Part shown: positions 27,889 through 50,948 of the stretch, in pieces
How positions within the stretch are numbered: position 1 is the stretch's first letter
Layout of the letters: every line of letters starts with the position of its first letter
Assembly: GCA_042408215.1 (NCBI GenBank)
Contig: JAYFMW010000030.1
Span: 320,001 to 384,000, forward strand
Origin: Microcoleus sp.
Lineage (GTDB): Bacteria > Cyanobacteriota > Cyanobacteriia > Cyanobacteriales > Microcoleaceae
Direction of reading: 5' to 3'
Length of the DNA stretch: 64,000 bases
Notes under the pieces: model-generated
What the model was told of the DNA's origin: nothing
Database searches by the model: none
What the model saw: only the letters and a program-made list of their open reading frames with translations
Program-made: the position numbers and the translations under genes

Positions 27889-28025
27889 TAAAAACACTTG
27901 ACAGTTATTGGTTATGAGTTATTAGTTATTAGTTACCAATAACTGCTAATACATAACCAATAACCAATAACAACAGCAAACAGTCAACTGTCAACTGTCA
28001 ACTATTTCCTGAAAGGACAATTGAG

Positions 28026-28475
28026 ATGGACGATTCGCAAAATTTTCTCAAAGAAGACGATGTTTTGTCTACTTCTGTCAGCGCTTTAATGTATCAATGC
28101 ACCTTTAAAGTCAGCGAATTTTTGACGATTATGCAGTCAAAATTGCCAGAAGAAAAGTTGTTTACCGACGGTATGGATTGCGAACTTTTAAGTGCAGGAA
28201 AAGCTTGGAGAAAAGGAAAAATTAGGCTGCGTTTGGAGTTCTGCCAGAGCGAGCCTGATGTGCCGGCACAAAAAGCCCTGATGGTTCGACTTCGCTCACC
28301 AACCACCGCAGCCTCCGACGCACAAGATATCGCGCCAAACTATCCAGCAGATAGCTCAGACGAAACTGATACAGATGACGAATTAAATATCAGCGACTCA
28401 ACAGCAATAACTAATGATTTTCCTAGTTCTAGGTATCCAGACAATCACCCTCACAGTGTAGGAATGTGGAGTTAA
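28026..28475 (+). CDS. KGK domain protein
   Basis: GMDCELLSAGKAWRKGKIRLRLEFC. Confidence 0.8.
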   Translation: MDDSQNFLKEDDVLSTSVSALMYQCTFKVSEFLTIMQSKLPEEKLFTDGMDCELLSAGKAWRKGKIRLRLEFCQSEPDVPAQKALMVRLRSPTTAASDAQDIAPNYPADSSDETDTDDELNISDSTAITNDFPSSRYPDNHPHSVGMWS

Positions 28476-28650
28476 AAGTCATTAGTCATTAGTCATTAGT
28501 CATTAGTCATTAGTCATTAGTTGGTTGTTATTTATTGGTGAGTTGTTGATTGTTAGTTTTTTCCTGATAATAATCAATAACTCATAACCAAAAAACAACC
28601 AATAACTAATAACGAATAACCCATGCCCATTGCCCAATTCCCAATGCCCT

Positions 28651-29748
28651 ATGCCCTATCTGCCCAATGGACAATGGACAAACCTCCACGCTCAACTACA
28701 TCGGACACTTCGGCACCGAAAAATATTGCCGCCAAATCAGCGATCGCTAGTAGCTGTATCCGGCGGACAAGATTCTCTGTGCTTAATCCAATTACTGCTA
28801 GATTTGCAGCCAAAATGGGGCTGGCATCTCGCAATTGCCCACTGCGATCACCGCTGGCGTTCCGATTCAGAAGCTTCGGCCAATCATGTCGCACAATTAG
28901 CTAAAAATTGGGGAATATCCTATTATTTGGAAACCGCCGATCGCGTCGCTACAACAGAAGCCGCCGCCAGACAGTGGCGATATCACAGTTTAACCAAAAT
29001 TGCGATCGCCCACAACTATCCCTACATTGTTACAGGCCACACCCAGAGCGATCGCGCCGAAACTCTTCTCTACAACCTGATTCGCGGCAGCGGTGCAGAC
29101 GGACTTTCAGCCCTCACATGGGTTCGCCCCCTTGCCGATTTTCAATTGGAAAATTTCGATGACAATCCCCAATCCAAAATCCAAAATCCAAAATCCAAAA
29201 TTTATTTAGTTCGTCCCCTACTCGAAATAACTCGATCGCAAACAGGTCAATTTTGTCAAGAGCAAAAACTACCAATTTGGGAAGATTCCACAAATCAAGA
29301 TTTACAATATGCCCGCAACCGCATTCGAGGTGAATTATTACCTTATTTAGAAACTCATTTTAACCCAAAAGTCCAACAAGCACTAGCTCAAACAGCCGAA
29401 ATCCTCCGCGCCGACGTCGAATATCTAGAACTTGCAGCTAGCGAGTTGCTACAGCGCGCAATTTTGGCAATTAACGAACCAGAACAGGTCAATTGTCAAC
29501 TGCCAGTTAAATTAAACCGCCTGATTTTGCGCGAAGCACCCCAAGCCTTACAGCGACGGGCTATGCGACAACTATTACAACAAATATTACCCACCGCACC
29601 CAGCTTTGAAAGCGTAGAAAAACTGACAGGCTTAATCCTAGCCCCCAATCGATCGCAAACCGATCCATTTCCCGGAGGAGCGATCGCTCGAGTCGAACAC
29701 CCTGCGATCATTTTGGATCTGAAATGTGAACTTCCAACTCACACCTAA
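28651..29748 (+). CDS. tilS: tRNA(Ile)-lysidine synthetase
   Basis: VAVSGGQDS, HCDHRWR, GHTQSDRAET, RPLL, EDSTN, RNRIR. Confidence 0.93.
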   Translation: MPYLPNGQWTNLHAQLHRTLRHRKILPPNQRSLVAVSGGQDSLCLIQLLLDLQPKWGWHLAIAHCDHRWRSDSEASANHVAQLAKNWGISYYLETADRVATTEAAARQWRYHSLTKIAIAHNYPYIVTGHTQSDRAETLLYNLIRGSGADGLSALTWVRPLADFQLENFDDNPQSKIQNPKSKIYLVRPLLEITRSQTGQFCQEQKLPIWEDSTNQDLQYARNRIRGELLPYLETHFNPKVQQALAQTAEILRADVEYLELAASELLQRAILAINEPEQVNCQLPVKLNRLILREAPQALQRRAMRQLLQQILPTAPSFESVEKLTGLILAPNRSQTDPFPGGAIARVEHPAIILDLKCELPTHT

Positions 29749-31493
29749 GACAGATCGATCAAACCCGATAGAACTTCCCGCAACTGAGCAACTACCTGAG
29801 CTTCCTGCTCACTACTTTGCACAGATCGATCGAGTGTCCCCGCCATCCCTTCCAGCTTTTCGCGCAGCCCCCTCAAATTATCCTGCATCGGCTGCAACAT
29901 TTCTTGATAAACATTCACCCGGCCCCAGAGTTCCGCCACAGAACCTTTCTGGTTGAACACATTCTGCTCTAACTGTTTAATTTCATAGCGCTTCGCCTCA
30001 AGTTCCCCATTTTGGCGGTTGACATTACCATCAATTTGAGCTATGACATCTCGCAACTGCTGAATTTCCTTCTCCAGCCTTTGCAAATCATTCCCCTGTT
30101 GTTGTCGCTGAGTATCGAGCTGTGCAATTATCGGCCCCAAATCCATCTCTCGATCTTGTTTTTGAGGATTCGCAGTACCCAGCCTGCGCCACAGTAACGT
30201 CTGATGCTGGCTCAAAACATCTTCCCGTTCCCGCAACCTCAGCCGCTGTCCCACCAGAGTTTCATTCAACATCTGATAACTTTCCAGCTCATCTGCCATT
30301 TCATTTTCCAAAGCCATGCGATCGTACTCGCTAGCGGCTTGAATTTTCTCTTGCAGTTCCTCAATCGTCTGCTGCTGAAGCGTCAACTCCTCCTCTTGGT
30401 CATTAACAAACCGAAACACCTTTTCTAAATCGTGTTGCAGATTTTTGACTAGCCCCTGCAACTCGTCAACTGGCATCTTCTCCAGAGCTTGCACATCTAC
30501 TACTTGTTGCACCGTACCAGCAGGACCCCGATCGGATGCCAGCCTCGAAACTTGATCTCTGAGCTTCTCCACTGCGCGCACCTGCTCCTCCATCGACTGA
30601 ACCTGCTCCTCCTTAGCGCTGAGGGTACTTTGCTGCCTGGCTCGATCTGCCCTGGCCATACTCAAAGCATCAGCCGCTTGATACCACTCCAGCCAGCGGT
30701 TCTGGATATTTTGATGTTGTCGATCGACCTCTTCTTGCTGCTGCTGAGCATTTGCCCGTTTTTGCTCCAACTGCTGCCAGTGTACATCCAGAATTGCCTG
30801 CTGAGTCCCCACAACAGCAAAAGACTGATTCAGTTGTTCTCGAACCCCTTGTGCCGAAGCAACCGCCTCACCCAGCCTGTTCATCAGCTCCTGAATCCTT
30901 TGGGCCTGCTGTGCATCGACAACCGCCCCCTGCTGCACCTGAGACTGCTGAATCGCCACCTGCTGCTGCTCGCCCCGCAACTGTTCCCAAGCCCTCTCAA
31001 TTTCCTGACGGCTGCTTGCGACCTCATCCCGCAATCGGTTAGCTTCATCTCGAGTATTTTCGATTTCCGAGCGCTGCGCCTCCAGCCGCTCCAACTCATC
31101 CTCCATTTGAGCCAACTGCTCTTCCCGGGCTTGCATTTCCATTTCCCGGCGATTGAGTTCCTGACTCGAAAACGTCAGAGAAGCCTTCCACTGTTCAATT
31201 TCTTCTTCCTTATCCTTAAACTTGTCCTGTAACCGCGAGAAATTTTGCAGAATGCTCACCAACTGGCGGGCCGCCTCCTGAATCCGCTGGACTTGCTTGC
31301 TAGCGCTCAACTCCACCAGCACCAAGGTGCCGTCGTTAAACTTATTAGCTTCCTCCACTGGAATCACATCATCGACCGGGACAGCGCTCCAATTGTGTTC
31401 ACCCCGCTGACAAGCTAGCAGTTTCAGTTCAGCCTTACCGCCACCGAGGCCAAAGCCACTTCTCTGTTTTTGTACTTCTGCTAGATACAGCAC
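29745..31493 (-). CDS. hmpF: Pilus/motility coiled-coil protein HmpF
   Basis: GTG start giving MLYLAEVQKQ...ELKLLACQR; long coiled coil; divergent from a PatA/CheW/MCP/CheA cluster. Confidence 0.88.
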   Translation of the reverse strand: MLYLAEVQKQRSGFGLGGGKAELKLLACQRGEHNWSAVPVDDVIPVEEANKFNDGTLVLVELSASKQVQRIQEAARQLVSILQNFSRLQDKFKDKEEEIEQWKASLTFSSQELNRREMEMQAREEQLAQMEDELERLEAQRSEIENTRDEANRLRDEVASSRQEIERAWEQLRGEQQQVAIQQSQVQQGAVVDAQQAQRIQELMNRLGEAVASAQGVREQLNQSFAVVGTQQAILDVHWQQLEQKRANAQQQQEEVDRQHQNIQNRWLEWYQAADALSMARADRARQQSTLSAKEEQVQSMEEQVRAVEKLRDQVSRLASDRGPAGTVQQVVDVQALEKMPVDELQGLVKNLQHDLEKVFRFVNDQEEELTLQQQTIEELQEKIQAASEYDRMALENEMADELESYQMLNETLVGQRLRLREREDVLSQHQTLLWRRLGTANPQKQDREMDLGPIIAQLDTQRQQQGNDLQRLEKEIQQLRDVIAQIDGNVNRQNGELEAKRYEIKQLEQNVFNQKGSVAELWGRVNVYQEMLQPMQDNLRGLREKLEGMAGTLDRSVQSSEQEAQVVAQLREVLSGLIDLS

Positions 31494-33050
31494 ACTGATC
31501 GTCCTCTCGCTTGATGTTGTTTTACCAATCCCTGGATAGCACCCCTTCCTAACTTTAGCAGCAAGCGATCGCACTACCTGACTCAGGAGCGTCCAGAAAG
31601 CACTGCCGGAGATCGATCGCCTCAACTTCAGGTTTACAGTATCAATGCCACTTGATCAAGAGTAGCAAAACTGGGGGGACTGCTACAGTTCACAAAAAAC
31701 CTGGCAATGCTTGACATTACCGGACTTTTTGTGGCTTTTTTCGTACAGGATTGACCCGCACAGGTGAAACTGCAAACACCTCTAAACGGTTGCTGCACCC
31801 CTCAAAGGGTGAGTTTCCGCTTACTTTTCTAATTATATTTAATGCTGCATTCACACTACTCATTGATCCGAGTCCCACGCACTGACCGAAACAACCCGCG
31901 AAAAACTCTCTTACCCTGATAATACTCTTGCTTACCGACAGGCTCTCAATCCCAAAAACTGCACTTACTTGTATAAGATTCTTCTGTAAGTGTTACCTTG
32001 ATACCCACTAACTCAGCTTTGTAGGTCATCATTTCTATCAGCTTGGCATGAGGCATTCAACAAAAGGTCTGATTCGTTTTTTTCCCTAACTCTAAATTTT
32101 GTTTCCACCCCACATTGTTTCCAATTACTAACTGCCCTATTTCCTCGTCCACCAACCCCTTGACAATCCAACTTCTGGTTGGATGAAGGTAGTTGTCTAC
32201 TCGCTTGTTTCGCTTCCAGGTGATTTGCTGAATTGGGCGCGTGGTATATTTCCCTTTTTCAAGTTGCGACTGTAAAAATGCTCGGCGCTTATTGAAACCT
32301 TGATTGATTGATTTGAGATGCTTTCCGTCATAAAGAGTTGGCATAAATGTTGGCTTTTTCGCTGCAAAACCCACGAGGCGTTCGAAGCATAAATCTATAC
32401 CTGCTATGAGTTTGGGGTTTAAATCCACAATGGTAACAGGCTTTTCATAAACCACCTCAACCATGTAGGTAGCTGTTGCAGGAACTCTCCTTACCTCTCT
32501 GACATAAGAGTGCTTTTGTAGCAATTATCATCTCAGTTTGAGCTCGATGAAGTCGCCCGTTATTTTTCTGTTTCCCCCTTTGTCCTATCGATTGGTTATC
32601 ATAAATTAACAAGTTACGTCCGCAGGCTTTATGTTTGTATTTGGGGATGTAGGGGCGGGCTAAAAATAGATGGATATCCCGGTAATAAGCCCCCCTCGCC
32701 TTTGGCCAAGCTGACCAATCGTGAATAACTTGTTTGAGAACTTGATTGCTAACTTTTGCTGGTAAGGATTTATAGTCGTCTGTGGGTTTGACGATCGCAT
32801 ATAACTGTTTTAGACTTAAAGCAAATCCCACCCTCGACCCAAGCCCAAAAAAAACACACCAAAAAAGTGTTGCCTCACCCAATAGTTACCATGCTTGTAG
32901 AGATTTTTTGACAGGAATGATCGTTCATCGAACCGTTGAAAAAACTGATGCTGTCTGTCTATGTAATCTGCTATACAAATACTAGACAAGCCTAGACATT
33001 TGCTTCTTACTTCATCGGGAGCATGGGAGCAGTTATCCCTCAGTAAGCTT

Positions 33051-36000
33051 TCACGGTTTAGCCAACCGCGATACGCCAGTTGCTCCACTTGGGGAAACCC
33101 CAAGACCGCACTGGCTTAAATTTATCGCTGCATTCAAATCTCTATCCATCCCATGACCGCAACTTCCACAGTTGTAAGTTCTTTCTTTCAATGGCATATC
33201 TTGAATATGTCCGCAATTTGAACAGGTTTTGCTTGACGGGAACCATCGGTCGGCAACAATCACTTCACAGCCAAACTTTTTAGCCTTGTATTCTAGCTGA
33301 CGCTTGAATTCATGAAATCCACAGTCAGCTATTACTTGCGCTAACTTGTGATTCTTTAGCATCCCAGAAGTATTTAAATCTTCTACTACTATCGTTGCGT
33401 GGTTTTTGCAGAAGTAAGTAGTGATTTGATGAAGAGTATTCTTTCTGAGGTTTGCTATTTTGGCATGATGTTTTGCTAGCCTTTGTTTGGCCTTAAATCT
33501 CTGGCTGGAGCCTTTCACTTTTCTTGCAAGAACTCTGGATAGTCTCTTGAGTTTTGCCAGGTGCACTTTATAGTGTTTTGGGTTCGGAAATACTACGCCA
33601 GTTGAAAGCGTAGCCAACTCTTTCACCCCCAAGTCCACTCCCACAACTTCATGACTCTTGATGGTAGGTTCATGCTCAAGCGAATAAGCAAAAGCAATAA
33701 ACCAACTGTCGGCGGTACGCGAAATAGTGATTGACTTGCAAGTCGTGTGAGGCAATCCTTCGTAAGTTTTTACCCAGCCGATTGTTGGTAGCTTGATAGA
33801 TGTACCGCCGACAGGTATTGGTTTACCGCCTGCGTCAATTGTGAAAGAGTCGTGATGCCCCTTCTTTTTGAACCTGGGATGTCCACCTTTCTTCGAGAAG
33901 AAACGAGAGAAAGAATCTCCAAGATTGTCAAAGGCGTATTGAGTTATCTTTTGGCAGATTCCGGCTTCCTTGAGCCAGGCAAACTCAGGTTTTACGTGAT
34001 TGTTGAAGAATTTCTTGAGTAGGTATTTGTTGGGCTTTAGTTAGAGTCGATTAGGGAGTTGCCCCCCTAACCTCTCCTTCAGAACGGAACGTGATACTTT
34101 CGCATCATTCCGCTCCTCAATAATCCCACCTTTGTTACAGGTACGATTCAAGACTAACTATCGGGTTTTGACATCTTCTTTAGAATGTATTGACCCGTCT
34201 GTTGCTGTCTTTGCGTCGTGGCAGTGTCTATGCAAAAGTTGTAGGTTATCGTAGGTATCTTTTCCACCTAACGATGTTGGTTTAATATGGTCAACTTCTA
34301 CAATGTCTGTACTTGTGAAATACAAACCACAGTGAGTACAAATACCCTTTTGTCGTTTGATTAATGATGCAACTCTGTTAGGAGTTTCTGGGTACTCGCC
34401 TCTTCGCTTGCTCCAGTAAATCCAGTCTCCATTGTACGGACTAGCCTCACCTTTGACCTTTGTATGCCTTACGATTGGCGTATTTGTATGAGTGAGTAGT
34501 TCTAATCCATCTTCGGTACTGAAGCACCAATTGCGGTCACCTACTGTTCTCCAGTATTTGTCCTTATTGATGCTACCTTTTCCCCTCGATTTAGCCCAGG
34601 CTCTTAATTTTTGCCATGTCAGCATATCTACCCTTGAATAGGTTTGCTTACTAACTTGTGTCGAGTAATATTTCGACCATCCTCTGATGATTGGATTTAA
34701 CTTGCTGATTAAAGCAGCTTGGGAGGTGGTTTTATGAGTGTCTATTACTTCGGCAATCTTGGCTAAATGAGTCTTAACCTTGGCTTTTGATGGTGTGATT
34801 AGTGTTGTAAAACCAAGTTGTATCCCTTGTGAGCTGTTGGCACTTCTGTAATTACCTACTTTGTGCTGCTGTACATGGAATCCAAGGAACTCAAACCCTA
34901 CGTTACCGTCAATCTTAATGAGGGTGTGGGTTAGTTTTGTTTTATTTGGTTTTAATTCTCGTCCCATATCACGTAGCCACTCAGCGATTATCTCTTGACA
35001 TTTCTTGACTACGTTTAAATCTTTGTGGATTATCACGAAATCGTCGGCGTAGCGGATTAGGCTTAAGGCTATACGGTTCTCCCGTTTTTTTCCTTTTAGT
35101 GTTTCCGCGTATTGTTTTATTCTTTCTTCCATACCATGTAGGGCGATATTTGCAAGTAGGGGTGATATTACCCCGCCTTGTGGTGTACCCTCATTAGTAG
35201 GGAATAAAGAATCCTGGTCACAATACCCTGCTTTGAGCCATGATTTGATTTGACGGTTTAAAGTGGGGTATGTTTTTATCTTTGAGAGTAACGCTTTGTG
35301 GTCTATGCGGTCGAAGCATTTAGCAATATCAGCATCAAGCACATATTTGGCTTTTTTATTAATACTGTCGAATATTGCTTGAATCGCATCGTGGCAGGAA
35401 CGTCCTGGTCTAAAACCGTAACTGTTAGGCTCAAATTTTGCCTCCCATTCTGGTTCTAACGCTAGTTTCACTAACGCTTGCAGTGCGCGGTCGTTTATCG
35501 TTGGGATGCCTAATGGTCTAGTTTCAGTAGTACCAGGTTTAGGAATATTAACCCTACGAGTGGGTTTTACTTTACCTGTTAACTTTAACTTGCCTATCAG
35601 GTTGATACGTTGCTTTGGGGTCAATGCTTTTACACCATCCACTCCCGCCGTATTCTTTCCTTGGTTATCTTGTGTCACCCTACGTACCGCGATACACTTT
35701 GCAGACCAAGACCTAATCAGGGTTTTCTGAAGTTTGCGAACTGCTTTAACATCACCACGTTCACTCGCTTGGAATATTCGCTTTTGCAACTTAAAAGTCA
35801 CCCTTTCTAGCTTGCGCCAGTTGATGTCTTTCCACTCCACCGTCTGATTGTTCAGCGTTTTAGATATGTTCATTGCTACTTGTTCAACTCCTTTGGAATT
35901 ACCGAGTATCTGTTAGCATATCCCCCGCATTACCGAGGGCATTCCGCTTTTGATACCATCCCGCTCTCTTACACCGTTCGTTAGCTACTTACTGGTTATC

Positions 36001-36620
36001 GACCTTACCAGAGGTTTAAGAGAGTTACTTCGTTCCGATTACACATTGATTGAGTCTTTAGCGTGATGTTTTCCACCGGGTTTATTGGGCGGTGCTTATA
36101 AGTCGAATGGACATTCGCTTATGCCCTATCCTTGCCTTTTGGCTTGGTGTTATCAAGTTTTACCGCATTTTCAACGGATTTATCCTTGGTCAGCCATTTC
36201 ACCATTTATCATTACGATGGTTCAAACACATCATTGCTTTCGCTACGCATGGACTCTTGCTCGATAGTTACTAGATTTGGCTTCTAGTAGTTCTACCTTT
36301 TAACCCCGCTTTAGTTAATTGGTTGCTACCCAATTAACTAGGGGTTATGCTTTCACCTCTGCACTTGAGGGGAAGGACTTACCGCACGGCGGTTCACCTC
36401 CAAATGTAATCAGTTATCACCAGTCTTATCAACTAGGCTAACCGTCCCATAAGCGTTTCAGCTTATTTTAGGTTAAACGAATCGCACATCCATCTTTATA
36501 AAGGTAACACCAAGTAGCCAGTCCCCAGTTATAAGTAAACCTCGCTATGCCAGCGTGTTTACTCATGACCGTTGATTGACTCTTGTTTAGCTTTAACTTT
36601 GTTTTGATGGACAAAAGCAT
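33051..36620 (-). CDS. tnpB: IS607 TnpB RNA-guided nuclease; two exons (36620-36488, 34039-33051), 373 aa after splicing
   Basis: MLLSIKTKLKL...YKDG-L-KPNKYLLKK continuous frame; RuvC GVDLG, VVEDL, DRDLNAA; Zn finger CSNC/CGSC. Confidence 0.9.
34040..36487 (-). ncRNA. Group II intron (probably IIB, chloroplast-like class), 2448 nt
   Basis: 5' GTGCG at 36487; domain V GAGCGGAATGATGCGAAAGTATCACGTTCCGTTC; domain VI ending ...CTCTAAC at 34040; candidate EBS1 GUCCAU (36112-36107) pairs with exon end AUGGAU. Confidence 0.92.
34158..35873 (-). CDS. ltrA: Group II intron reverse transcriptase/maturase with HNH endonuclease domain
   Basis: RPLGIP, YGFRPGRS, GTPQGGVISPLLANI, YADD, FLGF, LNPIIRGW, EVDHI...NLQLLHRHCH. 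Confidence 0.95.
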   Translation of the reverse strand: MNISKTLNNQTVEWKDINWRKLERVTFKLQKRIFQASERGDVKAVRKLQKTLIRSWSAKCIAVRRVTQDNQGKNTAGVDGVKALTPKQRINLIGKLKLTGKVKPTRRVNIPKPGTTETRPLGIPTINDRALQALVKLALEPEWEAKFEPNSYGFRPGRSCHDAIQAIFDSINKKAKYVLDADIAKCFDRIDHKALLSKIKTYPTLNRQIKSWLKAGYCDQDSLFPTNEGTPQGGVISPLLANIALHGMEERIKQYAETLKGKKRENRIALSLIRYADDFVIIHKDLNVVKKCQEIIAEWLRDMGRELKPNKTKLTHTLIKIDGNVGFEFLGFHVQQHKVGNYRSANSSQGIQLGFTTLITPSKAKVKTHLAKIAEVIDTHKTTSQAALISKLNPIIRGWSKYYSTQVSKQTYSRVDMLTWQKLRAWAKSRGKGSINKDKYWRTVGDRNWCFSTEDGLELLTHTNTPIVRHTKVKGEASPYNGDWIYWSKRRGEYPETPNRVASLIKRQKGICTHCGLYFTSTDIVEVDHIKPTSLGGKDTYDNLQLLHRHCHDAKTATDGSIHSKEDVKTR

Positions 36621-36629
36621 TGTTCGACC

Positions 36630-37280
36630 TCAACACTGGATTTCTTGATTGCTCAATTCTGACAGGTCTTGTACGGGTTTGTCAATAGCCTTTTTCAGAT
36701 TCTCCTTGATTTCCTTGGAGTAATTTCGCCAACCGTACAAACGGCCAGAAAAACAGTGGATTATCGCCATCAAGTCTTCTACTAATTCATGTTGCGGAGA
36801 CAGTGATTCTTGATTGGCGACTACAATTTCACATCCCACTGATATCGCAAGCTCCTGAATGAATTCAAAGGCAAATCTGCACATCCTATCCTTGTGTGCA
36901 ATTACAATTGTTGATATTTCGCCTTTGAGCATTGACAGCATGATTGCTAGAAACTTTTTTCTCTTAAAGTTTAACCCACCACCAATTTCCGATACCCAGT
37001 CATCAACCGTCAGTCCTCTACCTAGGCAAAAAGCTTCCATAGCAAGTAACTGATTTTTCAGTTCTGGCTTCTGCCCGTTAGATGAAACTCGACAGTAAAC
37101 GATTGTCTTTCGGTTGGCTTCTATGGGTTTCAGACCGTTGGCTATCAAGAGATCGTCTTCTGTGTAGAAGCGATGGCCTGACAGGGTGCGCTTGGCTGGC
37201 AACTTCCCCGCGACATCCCAGCGCTGGAGGGTCTTTACTGATAGCCCAAGCTTTTTTGCGAATTCGTGTGGTTTGAACAT
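36630..37280 (-). CDS. tnpA: IS607 transposase (MerR-like HTH + serine recombinase)
   Basis: SVKTLQRWD, YCRVSS, EIGGGLNFKRK, HKDRMCRF, ELVEDL. Confidence 0.93.
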   Translation of the reverse strand: MFKPHEFAKKLGLSVKTLQRWDVAGKLPAKRTLSGHRFYTEDDLLIANGLKPIEANRKTIVYCRVSSNGQKPELKNQLLAMEAFCLGRGLTVDDWVSEIGGGLNFKRKKFLAIMLSMLKGEISTIVIAHKDRMCRFAFEFIQELAISVGCEIVVANQESLSPQHELVEDLMAIIHCFSGRLYGWRNYSKEIKENLKKAIDKPVQDLSELSNQEIQC

Positions 37281-37998
37281 GGTACACGTAAGAGGTTTGT
37301 CGGCAAGTGTACCACTTTGTTTATTTATTCACTAGCTAGGTACTAGCTCTTTCAACAACCATCATATTTTATGGAGGTAGAAAAGTTTATGGGCTTGTGT
37401 CCGGTAATGTGCGGTAAAATCCAGGGATTATCTGATCTAGTTTAGCACCCCAAAGCCGAAACAAGTCAACCGAAGGTAGAAGGCTGGCTTTCGGCTACAG
37501 GCGCTGCTCACCCAAGGGCGATCGCTCCTTGCACTTCAGCAGGCGCTCCCCCATGCCTTGAGTTGCAGGTCGTCTGGTCTCCGTCAATTCAACCCAAGCT
37601 CTGCTGGCCACAGGTAAAGTAGGGATTTGAACCGCGCTACCTTAGAATAGGGGAATGCCAAGCGCCTGCGCGTGAGTAGCAGGCGAGCAAAAAAGTATTC
37701 ACGCACCAAAACCGGACGGCTAATCAATGCTGATGGGAATGGTTGTTTGAATATTGGTCACAAGTTAACGACACTGCGGTGGGCGGTTTTGTAGTTAACG
37801 AGCGGTTTAACAGCAGCCGATAAAAGCGTACAAACATTAAATTTAGGCGAGTTCGATATTTGTCTAGATTTTTTGGCACTATGCCAACAATCAGGCAGAT
37901 CTGCGACACTTATTACAGTACAAAGCCTTGATTGTCGGTTGACGCGCACCTAGTCTTTTTCAACTCAGACACGGTTTTAAGGAGAACACTTTAGCTGC

Positions 37999-39237
37999 AT
38001 GCAGGGAAATTTGAGTGAAATTGACATCCGCAGCATCCTGCAACTGATTGAGTTAGGTCAGCGAACAGGAGAACTGTTCGTAGAGGCCTACAGCTCCATC
38101 GTCAGCAGCACTGGTACTCAACCTACCCAGCGCTCCCTTGCAGGACAATCCTGGTTTGTCTTCTGCTTCAATGGTCAGATTATTTACGCTACCCAGAGTG
38201 CGGGCAGTTTGTTTCGCTTGCGCGACTACCTGCGTCGCTACAAAGCAGACACCGCCCTCGACCAAATCCAAGTTCCCTACATGGCTTCTACCAATGCGCC
38301 AGAATACGGCTACCTGTGGGCGCTGCTAGAAAACCACATCCTCACCCCAGCTCAAGGGCGCAACATCATCCACAGCATGATCCACGAAACCCTCTTTGAC
38401 TTGCTCAGTCTCCACCAGGGTTCCTTCACCTTTGAAATGGGGTCTGCCTTAGCTCCTCAATTAACCAGCTTAGAAATTAGCTCCCTGCTGGCGAAGATTG
38501 TCAAACAGGTACAGCAGTGGAAGCAGTTTCACCCTCACATTCAGTCGCCCAACCAATGCCCGGTGATTTCAGACCCCGCCGAGTTGCAAGTGGCATTGCC
38601 TGTCAATACTTTTAATACTCTCAGACGCTGGGCTGACGGGCACACTTCGATCCGTCAAATGGCTCGCTACCTCAACCGAGATGTGCTGAGTGTCGCTAAG
38701 GCGATATACCCCTTCGTGCAGCAGGGATTGGTGCAACTATTTTACGAGCCTTCTGTTGCCCCTGCCAATAGCAAAAAAGAATGGTCGTCCCCAGAAACTA
38801 AAGTTCCCAAAGTTGTCTGTATTGACGACGACAATGTTATTCGCAAAACAGTCGAGTCAATTTTAAACGAACACGGTTACGAAGCTACTGCCATCAGCAG
38901 TCCCCTCAAAGCCTTGAGTTTAGTTTTTAAACTCAAACCCGATTTAATTCTGTGCGACATCGCCATGCCCGAACTCGACGGCTACGAAATTTGCGCTATG
39001 CTGCGCAATTCTAGCGCTTTCCGGCAGACGCCGATCGTCATGCTGACTGGTATCGACGGATTTATCGATCGAGTTCAGGCCCGGATGGCGGGAGCCACTG
39101 ACTACTTTACCAAACCGTTTGGCGAAAGCGAGTTATTAATGCTGGTAGAAAAATATATCGGCCCTGGTTGCCCGGAACTCCATCCATCGTCCAAATTATT
39201 AACCCAGGAACTCGATCGCGAATTAGAAGAGAATTGA
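37999..39237 (+). CDS. hmpA: PatA-family response regulator (PATAN + REC), HmpA/PilG orthologue
   Basis: MQGNLSEIDIRSILQLIELGQRTGEL; C-terminal REC VVCIDDD...DIAMP...KPF; locus context. Confidence 0.85.
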   Translation: MQGNLSEIDIRSILQLIELGQRTGELFVEAYSSIVSSTGTQPTQRSLAGQSWFVFCFNGQIIYATQSAGSLFRLRDYLRRYKADTALDQIQVPYMASTNAPEYGYLWALLENHILTPAQGRNIIHSMIHETLFDLLSLHQGSFTFEMGSALAPQLTSLEISSLLAKIVKQVQQWKQFHPHIQSPNQCPVISDPAELQVALPVNTFNTLRRWADGHTSIRQMARYLNRDVLSVAKAIYPFVQQGLVQLFYEPSVAPANSKKEWSSPETKVPKVVCIDDDNVIRKTVESILNEHGYEATAISSPLKALSLVFKLKPDLILCDIAMPELDGYEICAMLRNSSAFRQTPIVMLTGIDGFIDRVQARMAGATDYFTKPFGESELLMLVEKYIGPGCPELHPSSKLLTQELDRELEEN

Positions 39238-39298
39238 CTTTACTCAGCATAAGGGTTCAAAGTGCAAATATAATATAGAACCCATTTGAGATCTTTTA

Positions 39299-39498
39299 AC
39301 GATCGCCCGCAGCAAGCGATCGACTCACAGCAGTCGATCGCTCACAGCAGTCGATCGCTCACAGCAGTCGATCGGCTTCACAGCAGGCGATCGCTCACAG
39401 CAGGCGATCGCTCACAGCAGGCGATCGCTCACAGCAGGCGATCGGCTTCACAGCAGGCGATCGGCTTCACAGCAGGCGATCGGCTTCACGATCGCCCA
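39299..39498. repeat. HIP1-containing 17-18-bp minisatellite inside the IS5 left arm
   Basis: (CACAGCAGGCGATCGCT / ...CGGCTT)n, about 10 units, bounded by ACGATCGCCC direct repeats. Confidence 0.9.
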
Positions 39499-39616
39499 GA
39501 AAAGCTCTTTTTTTGAGGTGGTTCGGTTTAAAAGAGCGCGCTCGATAGATTTTCGAGTTGGTTGTCCCCCATCAAGTTTTGAGGTAAAATTACCAGAAAA
39601 AGACCCGAAAGCCATC

Positions 39617-40465
39617 ATGCCGTATTCTAGTAACCTAACGGACTCCGAATGGGAAATTCTCGAGCCTCTACTACATCAAATATTACCCGTTAAAAAGCCA
39701 ACTCGACCTCCTAGCTGGACTAAAAGAGAAATCTTAGATGGTATCTTCTATCAACTCAAGAATGGGTGTAATTGGGAAGACTTACCTAAAGACTTACCAC
39801 CCTACTCAACTGTATATTGGTATTACAAGCAATGGCGCTCAGAAGGAGTGCTTGAAGATTTGATGAAAGTCTTACATTCTCAAGTACGCGAACAAGTCAA
39901 AAAAAACCGAAGTGGACTACGTTGATCATTCTCGACTCACAAGCCGTGAAAAACACCTGTAATGCCAGTCTTGCATCGAAAGGATTTTGTTTCTACAAAT
40001 CGACGAATGGTATTAAAAGGCATCTAGCCGTTGATACGCTTGGGTTTCCCTTCTTTACTCATTGTACAAAAGCCCATGTATCAGATGATGCGGGTTGGAT
40101 TGAAATGTTGAGTAAAAACATCGATTATTTCAAGTCTAAACCAGTCAATATTCCCAAAATCACAATATTGCACGGGCGACGGTTATCACCCTGAACGTCT
40201 GACTATTGAGTTCAAGAAAATTTCTCCACAAATTCTGACCAAAATTAAGTTTGAACTCTCAAAAAAACCATCAAAACCACAAAAAGAAGCCGAGGGAAAA
40301 TCGGGATTTGTTCCGGTTAGGGCAAGGTGGGTGATTGAACGGTCAAATAGTTGGATGGAAAGATGCAAAATACTCGTTAAGAACTTCGAGAGAACTTTAG
40401 CTAATGCAACTGCCAAGGTAAATCTTTGTTTTATTAGGCTGATGGTTAAAAGGCTTGCGGTCTAA
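39617..40465 (+). pseudogene. IS5 transposase, split by an A-run frameshift (~39900) and a further lesion (~40175)
   Basis: MPYSSNLTDSEWEIL, IILDSQAVK, KRHLAVDTLG, RWVIERSNSW in different frames. Confidence 0.8.
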
Positions 40466-40773
40466 AAGATGTCAAATGGGTTCTATATTTGTTCTCCAGT
40501 GACTCGTTTAACCTAAATGAGCATAAATACTTAGATGCGGTGAGCTTGGTTCAATTCACTAATCTTGACAACAGACTTTCATAGGAGGGTGCAAGTCCCG
40601 AATTGCAGGTGCAGCCGTGAAAGCATAACCTCTAGTTGTATAGAAGGTGCAATTAATATTTAGTCGAAACGATGTTACCTTCATAAGAATTAATGCGGGA
40701 TGCGGGAAACGAGCGAGACTTTAGTCCTTCCTAGGGAAGCGGCGCGGGGGACTTCAGTCCCCGTGTTCTTTCT

Positions 40774-41181
40774 TTAGTTGGCCGAGTGATGTGGATCTTC
40801 TATATATTTTTTTACCACTTCACTACTAATATTACCTGCCGTACTCACAAAATAGCTGCTCGTCCATAAAGATGGCAGCTTTTTTAGTTGCGGGAACTCT
40901 GCCCGCAAATAACGGCTAGAACGACCCTTAAATAATTTAACGACTAACGCAGGGGTATCCGTTGGCTTAACAGCTACAAACAGATGTACATGGTCTGGCG
41001 CTAGAAGTAGCGCCAGAATGTCCCAACCTTTTTCAATTGACAGTTCCAGAAATATTTGGCGGGTTCTAGTTGCCACGTTCCCGATTAGAACTTTCTTGCG
41101 GCGCTTAGGGATAAAGACGAAGTGGTAGTTAAGTAAGAACTTGACGTGGTTGTGGGTTTTGTATTCAGGTAGTGGCAACAT
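40774..41181 (-). CDS. tnpA: Y1 HUH transposase TnpA
   Basis: YHFVFIPKRRK, DHVHL, KGRSSR, LWTSSYF, KKYIE; intact ORF. Confidence 0.93.
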   Translation of the reverse strand: MLPLPEYKTHNHVKFLLNYHFVFIPKRRKKVLIGNVATRTRQIFLELSIEKGWDILALLLAPDHVHLFVAVKPTDTPALVVKLFKGRSSRYLRAEFPQLKKLPSLWTSSYFVSTAGNISSEVVKKYIEDPHHSAN

Positions 41182-41262
41182 AAATATTTTGTCGATCTAG
41201 CTTGACGTATCCACTCTAGTCGCCTAAGCTAGACAAATCAACCAATCTTCGGGAAAATAGAG

Positions 41263-42731
41263 GTGACTAAAACCAAAAAAGCAATGGGAGTTCAGCAAGT
41301 ATTGCTGTCGCCCAATCAGGAACTTAAAGCGTTGTTGGAGTATCTCTGTCAACAATCAGGCAAGCTATATAACAGTGGTGTTTATTTGGCTCGTCAGACT
41401 TTTTTTCAAACCGGAAAAATGTTGACTGGAAAGTTTGACTTGTCCTTTGAACCATCAATTTCAAAGTCAATGGTTGCTAAGTCCTTGCCATCCACACCAA
41501 TGCAGCAAACATTGATGTCAGTCACAGAAGCTTTTAAATCTTTCAAAGAATTAAGAGATTTGTATCTCAAAGGTCAATTGCATTTTAAACCCAAGCCGCC
41601 GGGATACCTGAAAGGGTCTAAGTTGTTCAAAGTAGCTTATCCTAATTCTGGAGGTTTAAGGCCTAAACTTATCGGCAATCAGTTGAGATTCTCGTTGGGA
41701 TTGACGGTAAAGCGATGGTTTGGAGTTGACGAATTCTTTCTGCCTATGTCGTCAATCGATTTGAGATTTTAGATTTGAGATTTTAGATTTACCCCACGTA
41801 TAAATGCGGGGGCTTGAGGATTTTAGATTTGGGATTTTGGATTGATTCCACGGATCAATCCGGGGGCTTGTACCACCTTTGAAATTATTGGTCAAATCTG
41901 GATTTTTAGAGAGTGAAATAGTTGACGATTCTCCCTAAGAATGGAGTTTTTTACCTTGAGATATCCTAGGAGGTTGAAAAAGAACAACATAATCTGGATC
42001 TTGGCCAAGCATTATCAATTGACTTGGGGACTGCTGACAATTTAGCAGCTTGTGTCGATACACTAGGAAACTCCTTCTTAATTGATGCTCGTGCCATGAA
42101 AGCGATGAATCAATTGTGGAATAAAAAAGTCGCAACCAGAAAAGAAGGAAAGCCTGAAGGCTATTGGGATAACTGGCTAGACCGCGTAACTCGCAAACGC
42201 AATCACCAAATGCGTGATGGCATCAATAAGGCTGCGAAGTTGATTGTCAGCCATTGCTTGAAATACAGCGTCGGGAATATTATTTGTGGTGGGAATCAAG
42301 GTTTCAAATCCCATGTCAATATGGGAAAAAAGAACAATCAAAAGTTTGTTCAAATGCCTTTGGGAAAGCTGAAAGACCGATTAAATCAACTGTGTGACTT
42401 GCACGGTATTAAGTTTACAGAAACCGAAGAAGCGTATAGGTCCAAAGCTAGTTTTTTAGATGGAGACTCCCTGCCCAAATATGGTGAAAAACCGGAAGGG
42501 TGGAAAGCATCTGGAAAGCGAATTAAGCGTGGATTGTATCGGTCTGTCGATGGAACAGTGATGAATGCAGACTTAAATGGTTCCGCCAATATCCTGAGAA
42601 AAGTAGCCAGTAAGTTGGGTGTAAACCTTGACCGACTGGGTAGACGGTGCTTGACGACCGTAGCGAGAGTTAGAATTTGGATGTTACCCAAATCCGCTCT
42701 GTCCGCAGAATCTCAGTGGCTTCAGCCCTGA
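41263..42731 (+). pseudogene. tnpB: tnpB pseudogene
   Basis: Broken by a ~140-bp repeat insertion (~41755-41895, GTCAA at both sides) and TAG stops; SIDLG, TEEAYRSKAS, NADLNGSAN. Confidence 0.88.
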
Positions 42732-49641: not shown

Positions 49642-50948
49642 GACGGCTTTGTAAAGCTTTGCAAACATAGAGAAAAATCTTATATCTGCTGGAGTAATAT
49701 AAGGTGGGAGGTCAAACCATGCTAGTTTTTGAGTTTAAGGCCTACGGAAATAAGAGTCAATTTGTAGCAGTAGATGAAGCAATTCGTACAGCACAATTTG
49801 TCCGCAATAGCTGTATTCGGCTGTGGATGGACAACAACAAGATTGGGCAATACGACTTGCAGAAATACTGTGCCGTACTGGCTCATGAATTTCCATTTGC
49901 TGACGCACTCAACTCTCAAGCAAGACAAGCTAGTGCCGAACGAGCTTGGTCTGCCATCTCTCGGTTTTACGACAACTGCAAGAAGAAAACCCCTGGCAAA
50001 AAAGGGTATCCACAGTTTAAAAAAAACTGTCGTTCTGTCGAGTATAAAACTAGCGGATGGAAACTCGCTGAAGATAGAAAGTCTATAACCTTTAGCGACA
50101 AAAAAGGGATAGGCAAGCTTAAACTAAAAGGTACTCGCGACCTGCATTTTTATCAAATTAGCCAAATCAAACGGGTGAGATTGGTAAAAAAGGCTACGGG
50201 AGTATACGTTCAGTTTTGTATTGACGCTGAGCGAAAAGAGAATACTGAACCAACAGGAAAGACTGTCGGTTTAGACATGGGATTGAAGGAATATTACACC
50301 GATTCAAACGGAGTAATGGTTGAAAATCCCAAGTTCCTCAGAGCAGGCGAAAAAGTTCTAAAGCGGTGTCAGCGCCGCTTATCTAGAAAAGTAAAAGGTT
50401 CAAAAAATAGAGGCAAAGCTAGGCTGATTTTAGGAAAGCGCCATCTCAAAATAAGTAGGAAACGTAAAGACCATGCTGTGAAGTTAGCACGGTGCGTAGT
50501 TCAGTCAAACGACTTGATAGCTTACGAAAATTTGAGGATAAAAAATATGGTGAAAAATCACTGTCTAGCTAAGTCGATTAACGACGCTTCTTGGTATCAG
50601 TTCCGTGTCTGGATTGAATATTTTGGTAAAGTATTTGAGAGAGTCACGGTTGCTGTCAACCCAGCATATACCAGCCAAGAATGCTCTAACTGTGGTGAAA
50701 TTGTGAAAAAAACGCTATCCACTCGCACCCACGTTTGTAAATGTGGTTGTGTGATGGATAGAGATGAAAACGCAGCTAGAAACATCTTAAGTCGAGGATT
50801 GAGTACGGTAGGGCATACCGGAACTTTCGGACGAGATCCGAGCAACGCTTTAGGAGAATTAACCTCTACTTTGATTGGAGAAATCCGGTCATTGCAAGTT
50901 AGCTCGTAGAATAAAGAATCCCTGCGCGTTTACGCCAGGGAGTGTCAA
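49609..50948 (+). mobile_element. IS605/IS1341-type tnpB-only element inserted 3' of TTAC
   Basis: TTAC|CGAAAAACTGGGTCTAAAGCCCCGTCCTTCTAGGACGGCTTT left end; GAATCCCTGCGCGTTTACGCCAGGGAGTGTCAA right end. Confidence 0.9.
49719..50909 (+). CDS. tnpB: TnpB RNA-guided nuclease, intact
   Basis: GGAGG RBS; GLDMG, AYENL, DRDENAA; CSNC/CKCG. Confidence 0.93.
   Translation: MLVFEFKAYGNKSQFVAVDEAIRTAQFVRNSCIRLWMDNNKIGQYDLQKYCAVLAHEFPFADALNSQARQASAERAWSAISRFYDNCKKKTPGKKGYPQFKKNCRSVEYKTSGWKLAEDRKSITFSDKKGIGKLKLKGTRDLHFYQISQIKRVRLVKKATGVYVQFCIDAERKENTEPTGKTVGLDMGLKEYYTDSNGVMVENPKFLRAGEKVLKRCQRRLSRKVKGSKNRGKARLILGKRHLKISRKRKDHAVKLARCVVQSNDLIAYENLRIKNMVKNHCLAKSINDASWYQFRVWIEYFGKVFERVTVAVNPAYTSQECSNCGEIVKKTLSTRTHVCKCGCVMDRDENAARNILSRGLSTVGHTGTFGRDPSNALGELTSTLIGEIRSLQVSS

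Follow-up and report, generated by a model that had tools for sequence, protein, structure and literature searches.

The 64,000-nucleotide stretch of Microcoleus sp. DNA discussed here, called the window (GenBank assembly GCA_042408215.1, contig JAYFMW010000030.1, positions 320,001 to 384,000), carries an IS607-type insertion sequence (IS) of 4379 nt at 37346..32968 on the minus strand, where it separates codons 5 and 6 of a tnpB gene unrelated to its own. This inner element contains tnpA, a tnpB that is split by a 2448-nt group II intron, and an omegaRNA that is supported by covariation. The predicted guide of the omegaRNA is coding sequence of the interrupted outer tnpB, and the initial annotation of this DNA proposed that uninterrupted copies of the outer family would be cut by the element and could be converted by homing. 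The guide has only one other match in the genome, and that match is preceded by a motif that was not found at any natural insertion of the family. It is most probable that this three-layer nest of mobile elements resulted from ordinary transposition and that the guide serves the retention of the element at its own locus.

Organization and ends of the inner element

The features of the window were read from a listing of open reading frames (ORFs) and from Pfam and Rfam matches, and all features of the element lie on the minus strand. Related copies were sought by BLASTN in the genome itself (G000; 30 contigs, 7.36 Mb), and four others of the inner family were found, namely C10, C13, C20 and the fragment C26 (76-95% identity). 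A protein-seeded scan of public genomes gave 80 external loci from Microcoleus, other Oscillatoriales and Nostocales. The right end was located in 77 of these 80 loci, with 74 printable junctions, and the left end was located in 27, which represent 26 distinct flanks. The features of the inner element are the following:

37347..37350, minus strand: target motif AGAG, the candidate transposon-associated motif (TAM), in the left flank; GAG at 26/26 distinct external and 4/4 own-genome flanks
37281..37346, minus strand: IS607 left end (CTAGTACCTAGCTAG...), kept in C10, C13, C20 and 27 external loci
37280..36630, minus strand: tnpA, IS607-family serine transposase, 216 aa; NF033518, Pfam MerR and Resolvase
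36620..36488, minus strand: tnpB exon 1, 44 codons and one base; Pfam HTH_OrfB_IS605, 1.5e-10
36487..34040, minus strand: group II intron, 2448 nt, GTGCG...CTAAC; RF00029, an ORF for a reverse transcriptase (RT)-maturase, boundaries from comparison with the intron-less C20
35873..34158, minus strand: intact RT/maturase/HNH ORF of the intron, 571 aa; Pfam RVT_1, RVT_N, GIIM, HNH
34039..33051, minus strand: tnpB exon 2, 329 codons and stop; OrfB_IS605, Cas12f1-like_TNB
33125..32968, minus strand: omegaRNA scaffold ending at the right end and overlapping the tnpB 3' end; covariation and fold
33118..33074, minus strand: extra 45-nt in-frame hairpin within the scaffold and the TnpB tail, absent from the other four own-genome copies; folds separately
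32948..32967, minus strand: predicted 20-nt omegaRNA guide ATTACATAGACAGACAGCAT; copies are alike as far as 32968, and C11 has these letters within a coding region

The assignment to the IS607 type made in the initial annotation agrees with the match of TnpA to the NCBIfam model NF033518 (IS607 family transposase), which scores 197 bits against a cut-off of 110. The protein has an N-terminal MerR-like helix-turn-helix (HTH) domain (Pfam, 1.7e-09) and a Resolvase domain (8.5e-14), as expected for a serine recombinase. The left flank of the element reads ...GTTGAAAGAG| with the G at 37347, and the right end, ...TATAGCAG, is common to 74 external copies and 5 in the genome itself. The right junction is ...TATTTGTATAGCAG|ATTACATAGACAGACAGCATCAG... 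on the minus strand, where the bar separates 32968 from 32967. The similarity of the C10, C13, C20 and C26 copies stops at exactly window position 32968 (4/4), and the five own-genome copies end in ...GTATAGCAG or ...GTCGAGCAG with complete divergence beyond. All 74 printed external right ends are TAGCAG followed by unrelated sequence. The junction letters that had been noted earlier are present, and the boundary at 32968 is set by the four own-genome copies together with the 74 external junctions.

The four own-genome copies that have a left end start with CTAGTACC or ATGGTACT, each after a flank that ends in GAG. Left and right ends are conserved across independent copies at different sites, there is no target-site duplication, and an AG dinucleotide is common to the left flank and the right end ...GCAG, all of which conform to the IS607 type; the shared AG is the putative crossover (core) dinucleotide. 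Full-length external copies are 1884-1889 nt long, and the window copy minus the 2448-nt intron and minus the 45-nt hairpin is 1886 nt.

The guide and the target motif

The sequence ATTACATAGACAGACAGCAT is predicted to be the guide because similarity among the inner-family copies ends precisely at 32968. It starts where the initial annotation had put it, directly past this position, and it corresponds to codons 6-12 of the interrupted outer tnpB. That the guide lies in the coding region of the outer tnpB was confirmed in the intact ORF of the paralogue on contig C11, where the guide region encodes M-V-V-E-R-H-Y-I-D-R-Q-H-Q and the insertion point falls between codons 5 and 6.

GAG was found at 30 of 30 independent left flanks (26 external and 4 own-genome), and position -4 in the 26 external flanks is A in 14, T in 6, G in 6 and C in none. 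The target motif is DGAG. As the left flank ends in GAG in all 30 insertions, the AGAG of the window is compatible with this motif, and its earlier designation as a TAM-compatible flank stands. All copies, 74 external and 5 own-genome, have GCAG as their right end, which differs from the allowed GGAG at position -3 only. Because this end directly precedes the guide sequence itself, the element must avoid cutting itself, and single-base discrimination between self and target at -3 would therefore be expected of the TnpB.

The outer element and its empty site

The outer element is present in the window as two arms that flank the inner element:

37348..37449, minus strand: left arm, with the left end and the first 5 tnpB codons; 87% to C11:59151-59249, flank as in L082
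31684..32967, minus strand: right arm, with the tnpB pseudogene and its own 3' end; 88% to C11:59251-60518, Pfam OrfB_IS605 on one fragment

The outer tnpB fragments (32882..32057, minus strand) belong to a pseudogene with frameshifts and in-frame stops. The genome has only one other copy of the outer family, C11:59151-60518, which is uninterrupted; its identity to the window copy is 87-88%, and its ORF of 408 aa, starting MVVERHYIDRQHQ, is intact. The inner and outer TnpB proteins show no significant similarity to each other by BLASTP, and both match NF040570.

The outer family was searched for in 144 genomes of the same family as the host, and matches were obtained in 56 of them including G000. 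At one locus, L082 in genome G041, the surrounding DNA corresponds to that in the window, with identities of 96.5% upstream (1400 nt) and 99% downstream (588 nt), and it holds an uninterrupted outer element with the sequence GAAAGAG|ATTACATAGACAGAAAGCAT. L082 is the orthologous pre-insertion state, and the occupied site GAAAGAG[CTAG...GCAG]ATTACAT and the empty site GAAAGAG|ATTACAT form a direct before-and-after pair. The insertion was therefore precise and without duplication. The L082 outer copy is likewise a series of short ORFs, with 91% identity to the window copy; this divergence exceeds that of the flanks, as would be expected for a pseudogene.

Potential targets of the guide

With up to 4 substitutions allowed, the guide has two sites in the 7.36-Mb genome, its own junction and C11:59251. 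The latter has 0 mismatches (20/20, or 26/26 when counted on) and is preceded by TGAAAGAC, that is, by GAC and not GAG. GAC was found at 0 of 30 natural insertions, and no site in the genome combines the protospacer with the GAG motif. For the guides of the other four own-genome copies, no second site came closer than 3 mismatches.

The base at -1 in uninterrupted outer-family copies is C in 37 of 38 cases (C11, 28 of 29 external loci and 8 of 8 further loci), and the single G is that of the orthologous locus L082. Codon 6 across the outer family is CAT, CCT or CTT. C at -1 is taken to be ancestral because 37 of 38 uninterrupted copies carry it, and the G is read from this comparison as a change specific to the decaying locus that created GAG. 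A guide-selected escape mutation was considered for the C in C11 and ruled out on the same count. Matches to the guide at 20/20 preceded by GAC were found in C11, L083, L086, L088, L114 and L121, and one preceded by AAC in L084. The nested arrangement, as a full-length match to the junction, was seen in the window's own genome only (1/144 genomes) and never in a non-orthologous outer copy.

These results separate what can be kept of the initial annotation from what cannot. A genome check for intact sites resembling the guide, or for copies with the same insertion, did return one 20/20 site at C11; this site has the GAC motif, and no second insertion was found. The predicted cutting of uninterrupted outer copies elsewhere in the genome is not borne out, as the only other protospacer has GAC. 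Conversion of outer copies by homing likewise finds no support, with C11 87-88% identical, the host copy a pseudogene and the nested state confined to a single genome.

The omegaRNA scaffold

The last 112 nt of the scaffold were aligned for 56 copies, and the consensus has 24 pairs in 6 helices. Of the scaffold cells, 99.0% are paired compared with 93.2% after shuffling, compensatory changes on both sides occur at 9 pairs (80 cells), and 0 of 500 shuffles reach the covariation score. When the partners are slid as a control, pairing falls to 36-54%. The structured 3' RNA is conserved up to the boundary and is followed by a variable guide (the 74 downstream sequences differ), as is expected of an omegaRNA. 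The 158-nt scaffold of the window has a minimum free energy of -57.1 kcal/mol (z -3.59). RAGATH-18-type RNAs are reportedly the guide RNAs (reRNAs) of IS607 elements, found downstream of tnpB; no Rfam match, including RAGATH-18, was obtained at the omegaRNA with E up to 1 (window 28000-42000).

The 45-nt hairpin of the window scaffold also occurs in L029, L046 and L058 with different stem sequences and is enlarged in L050 and L034. It is unlikely that this insertion breaks the omegaRNA, as the stems in L029, L046 and L058 have changed and still pair. In the alignment, L041 and L053 have a second optional insert of roughly 24 nt that separates the first stem from the second, and L059 and L061 have the same shifted right-end match as these two.

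The split tnpB and the group II intron

The N-terminal HTH of the inner TnpB is encoded in a 50-codon ORF at 36620..36468 (minus strand), and the remainder of the protein in a 329-codon open frame at 34040..33054 with its stop at 33053..33051 (minus strand). Exon 2 matches OrfB_IS605 (1.1e-24) and Cas12f1-like_TNB (1.7e-24) in Pfam, and it retains the RuvC D/E/D residues (VGVDLG, VVEDLN, DRDLNAAINL) and a CxxC..CxxC zinc finger (CSNCGH...CGSCGH). Its product is 85% identical to the intact C20 protein. Alignment with the intron-less C20 copy places the end of exon 1 at 36488 and the start of exon 2 at 34039, and precise joining of these two positions would restore the frame as ..YKDG-L-KPNKY.., as in C20. 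The intron was found in 0 of the 80 external loci, and in most of the 77 loci that match exon 1 this match and that to exon 2 meet at a single base.

The assignment to group II is supported by a domain V/VI match at 34040-34117 (RF00029, 57.8 bits; gathering score 40), by a GTGCG start and a CTAAC end, which fit the GUGYG and AY of such introns, and by an RT-maturase ORF that matches RVT_1 (7.6e-48), GIIM (1.5e-17) and HNH (5.4e-14). Bacterial group II introns that encode RT-maturase-HNH proteins are known to reside in other mobile elements. The intron in the window resembles them in its GUGCG...AC ends, domain V, intact intron protein and location in a mobile-element gene, and it differs in that the host gene is tnpB.

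Relatives of the intron in the genome are found on C17 (84%) and C6 (73%). The closest, C17:622600-625078, is directly downstream of the coding end for the zinc finger and RuvC of another tnpB. This would place it in or beside the guide-RNA region of that element, and introns of this lineage may favour tnpB elements. Five genome sites match the 5' 470 nt of the intron with identical BLAST statistics (70.7%, 481 columns), which suggests a second group II intron family with several near-identical copies:

C30:136576-137011; C6:102548-102983; C6:417389-417824; C6:738634-739069; C20:318718-319153: intron 5' matches (BLAST)

Other copies of the two families

Among the other own-genome copies of the inner family, C20 encodes an intact TnpB of 358 aa, the start is missing from C10, a frameshift disrupts C13, and C26 is a deleted tnpB remnant that keeps the scaffold. 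The tnpA of the window is the only close copy in the genome, where other IS607-type transposases are 28-51% identical. C10, C13 and C20 each have a different internal deletion of tnpA, so that this gene is mostly lost from C10:62686-64056, C13:79460-81040 and C20:489334-490788, and external loci of 1276-1457 nt are short in the same way. Such shortening affects about half of the external copies for which both ends were located, and loss of tnpA from elements that keep tnpB and the omegaRNA appears to be recurrent. The C26 remnant (C26:191968-192216, L113) keeps a scaffold that is 95% identical and a guide of its own, and it could act as an ORF-less guide module for a TnpB supplied in trans.

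In many genomes of the genus there are about 20 outer-family copies (L094-L110; about 70% to the window copy) that have the same flanks on both sides. One locus seems, from these flanks, to have kept an outer-type tnpB across many species. Domestication of the copies at this shared locus was considered; by a crude ORF scan they are a mixture, some intact (408-417 aa) and some broken. Two more TnpB-like stretches of the window, at 41931-42608 and 50169-50786 (both plus strand), are about 35% identical to the outer and the inner protein, respectively. A plus-strand ORF at 37672..37794 was examined as a possible TnpB C-terminus, and no tblastn match to the C11 protein was obtained there with E up to 10. 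At window 28488-28640 there are weak Rfam matches to plant microRNA precursors, on both strands of the same about 130 nt and far below gathering scores, which together suggest a long intergenic hairpin or inverted repeat.

Public sequencing runs

Nineteen of the 23 public runs listed contain part of the stretch, and four of them were examined as assembled contigs. The intron-less joint 34039/36488 is present in contigs of the RNA libraries X14 and X15, which come from two studies, and not in those of the DNA run X1. The intron-less contig of X14 also skips tnpA (36644/37296). An X14 contig that joins 32967 to 37348 was considered as a product of excision and rejected, since the intervening letter gives a minus-strand GAC, that of a C11-type paralogue. 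A low-depth X14 contig that bridges 32888-33065 was set aside, as it has deletions like those of C26 and may be chimeric. In X14 and X15 the contig depth over 32968-33200 is much higher than over the body of tnpB; the scaffold is shared by all copies of the family and contig depth cannot rank parts of a gene, and this is a weak hint of expression.

Comparison with known systems

The closest counterpart is the Clostridium botulinum element CboIStron (Zedaveinyte et al., preprint 10.1101/2023.11.20.567912). There the serine transposase TnpA_S strictly requires the core dinucleotide, only TGGG was depleted from a TAM library, this being the same 4-nt motif as the integration site, and the last two bases of the scaffold are the last bases of the TAM. 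The window element is like CboIStron in that its tnpB follows, on the same strand, a gene for a serine transposase whose N-terminal domain is an HTH, and in that the target is not duplicated on insertion. Both elements also have a core dinucleotide at the left flank as well as at the scaffold end, a 4-nt motif that includes this dinucleotide, a guide from the right flank and a presumed retention by cut-and-copy. The motif and core are DGAG and AG in the window and TGGG and GG in CboIStron. The intron of CboIStron is of group I, extends across the element and shares sequence with the omegaRNA, whereas the window element has a group II intron with an RT/HNH gene inside tnpB, about 1 kb upstream of the omegaRNA. 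With the intron this distant, the conflict between splicing and guide production in IStrons is not expected in the window element. The activities described for CboIStron are, for the window element, predicted from its sequence. The model of retention and the rule that the TAM equals the target site are described as established for IS605 (PMC10055086) and for IS607 (10.1101/2023.11.20.567912).

A 2021 study of the Y1 (single-stranded DNA) TnpB system reportedly found a guide from the right flank and a TAM equal to the transposase motif, with the donor joint being cut and then recombining with the sister chromosome. The window element is predicted to share this layout and differs in its motif and in having a serine recombinase with a double-stranded DNA circle. 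Mears et al. reported a TnpB-driven gene drive of IS605 elements in multicopy plasmids (preprint 10.1101/2025.02.20.638934), in which insertion into a multicopy sequence re-programmes the guide against the insertion-free copies. The initial annotation followed the same logic. The window differs from this case in that the sequences concerned are two chromosomal paralogues that are about 88% alike and not identical plasmids, that the sole other copy is without the motif, and that no spread was seen in 144 genomes. In the titles and abstracts of the literature searched, no TnpB guide against another IS and no group II intron in tnpB is described, which is weak evidence of absence.

Proposed history and alternative explanations

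In the probable history, an outer copy with only tnpB had already decayed when drift changed its codon 6 from CAT to GAT and created GAG. The IS607 element would then have integrated at the new GAG by means of its serine transposase, with no target duplication and with AG shared, and the group II intron would have entered codon 45 of the element's tnpB later or earlier. The omegaRNA would be transcribed through the right end, so that the guide is automatically whatever 16-20 nt or so come next, which in this case are the conserved beginning of the outer tnpB. As in other IS607 and IS605 elements, the TnpB-omegaRNA complex would cut the scarless donor joint GAAAGAG|ATTACAT after excision, as well as sister chromosomes free of the element, and recombination would copy the element back. 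The C11 copy shares the protospacer and is predicted from its ancestral GAC to be unrecognised, which would account for the persistence of both C11 and the inner element.

Some points weigh against this account. Contigs cannot give the 3' end, processing site, strand or level of an RNA. Splicing was rejected as the source of the 34039/36488 joint in X14, the contig without tnpA being an intron-less relative in another strain. The intron could silence tnpB in practice. The stringency proposed for position -1 of the TAM is drawn from natural insertions and from a distant relative, and the conservation of GAG may mirror the preference of TnpA more than that of TnpB. Drift in an already dead copy is the likely origin of the change from CAT to GAT; decay could precede or follow the insertion.

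One alternative is that the element is an inert fossil, in which the intron blocks TnpB, no omegaRNA is made, the guide has no consequence and there is no retention at the locus. The tnpB is interrupted after codon 44 by 2448 nt, its repair by splicing is predicted, and the intron is absent from all 80 external copies. The lineage is also single-copy in the genome, and the other four copies are 76-83% identical or fragmentary and are therefore not products of recent transposition. We nevertheless regard an inert fossil as unlikely. The frames of tnpA (216 aa), the intron ORF (571 aa) and both tnpB exons are open and the catalytic residues are kept, unlike those of the neighbouring pseudogene, and the intron keeps canonical ends together with a match to domain V. 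The insertion is fairly young, being absent from an orthologous locus with flanks 96.5-99% identical, and the far deeper scaffold contigs in the two RNA libraries point, weakly, in the same direction.

If instead TnpB were active with this guide, it might cut outer-family copies and convert them by homing, a drive of one transposon against another that would also spread the intron. The match at C11:59251-59270 is 20/20, as are those in L083, L084, L086, L088, L114 and L121 of other genomes. The intact C20 TnpB (358 aa) could load the RNA in trans without splicing, and the reported plasmid gene drive mentioned above provides a precedent. This attack is nevertheless very unlikely: it is a mechanism without a target because no genomic site pairs the protospacer with the motif. 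Every matching site is preceded by GAC or AAC, C11 persists intact, and the nested state in 1 of 144 family genomes has no second, non-orthologous counterpart. The arms available for conversion are 87-88% identical with a perfect match at the site of only 16 and 26 nt, and an identity of about 88% between the host copy and C11 is poor for gene conversion. It is equally improbable that a TAM leaky at -1, or binding without cutting, allows a TnpB that is spliced or supplied in trans by C20 to engage the initial codons of the intact C11 tnpB and of similar GAC-flanked copies across the genus. Ordinary transposition with retention at the element's own locus remains the probable explanation.

Significance

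If the attack did operate, one RNA-guided transposon would police or invade another, and the idea of plasmid gene drive would extend to families of insertion sequences. Leaky recognition or binding would, if true, mean that one tnpB family interferes with, represses or occasionally converts another, unrelated one under RNA guidance, and the conserved His-6 codon (CAT) of the outer family would be a natural protection. The analysis provides a clean before-and-after pair for an IS607 insertion, as well as the DGAG motif from 30 insertions and a covariation-supported omegaRNA for a family that is common in filamentous cyanobacteria. It also offers an example in which one base, apparently ancestral, beside a perfect protospacer would keep a paralogue out of reach, and a tnpB that would need removal of a group II intron by splicing, a stacking of selfish elements that can be tested.

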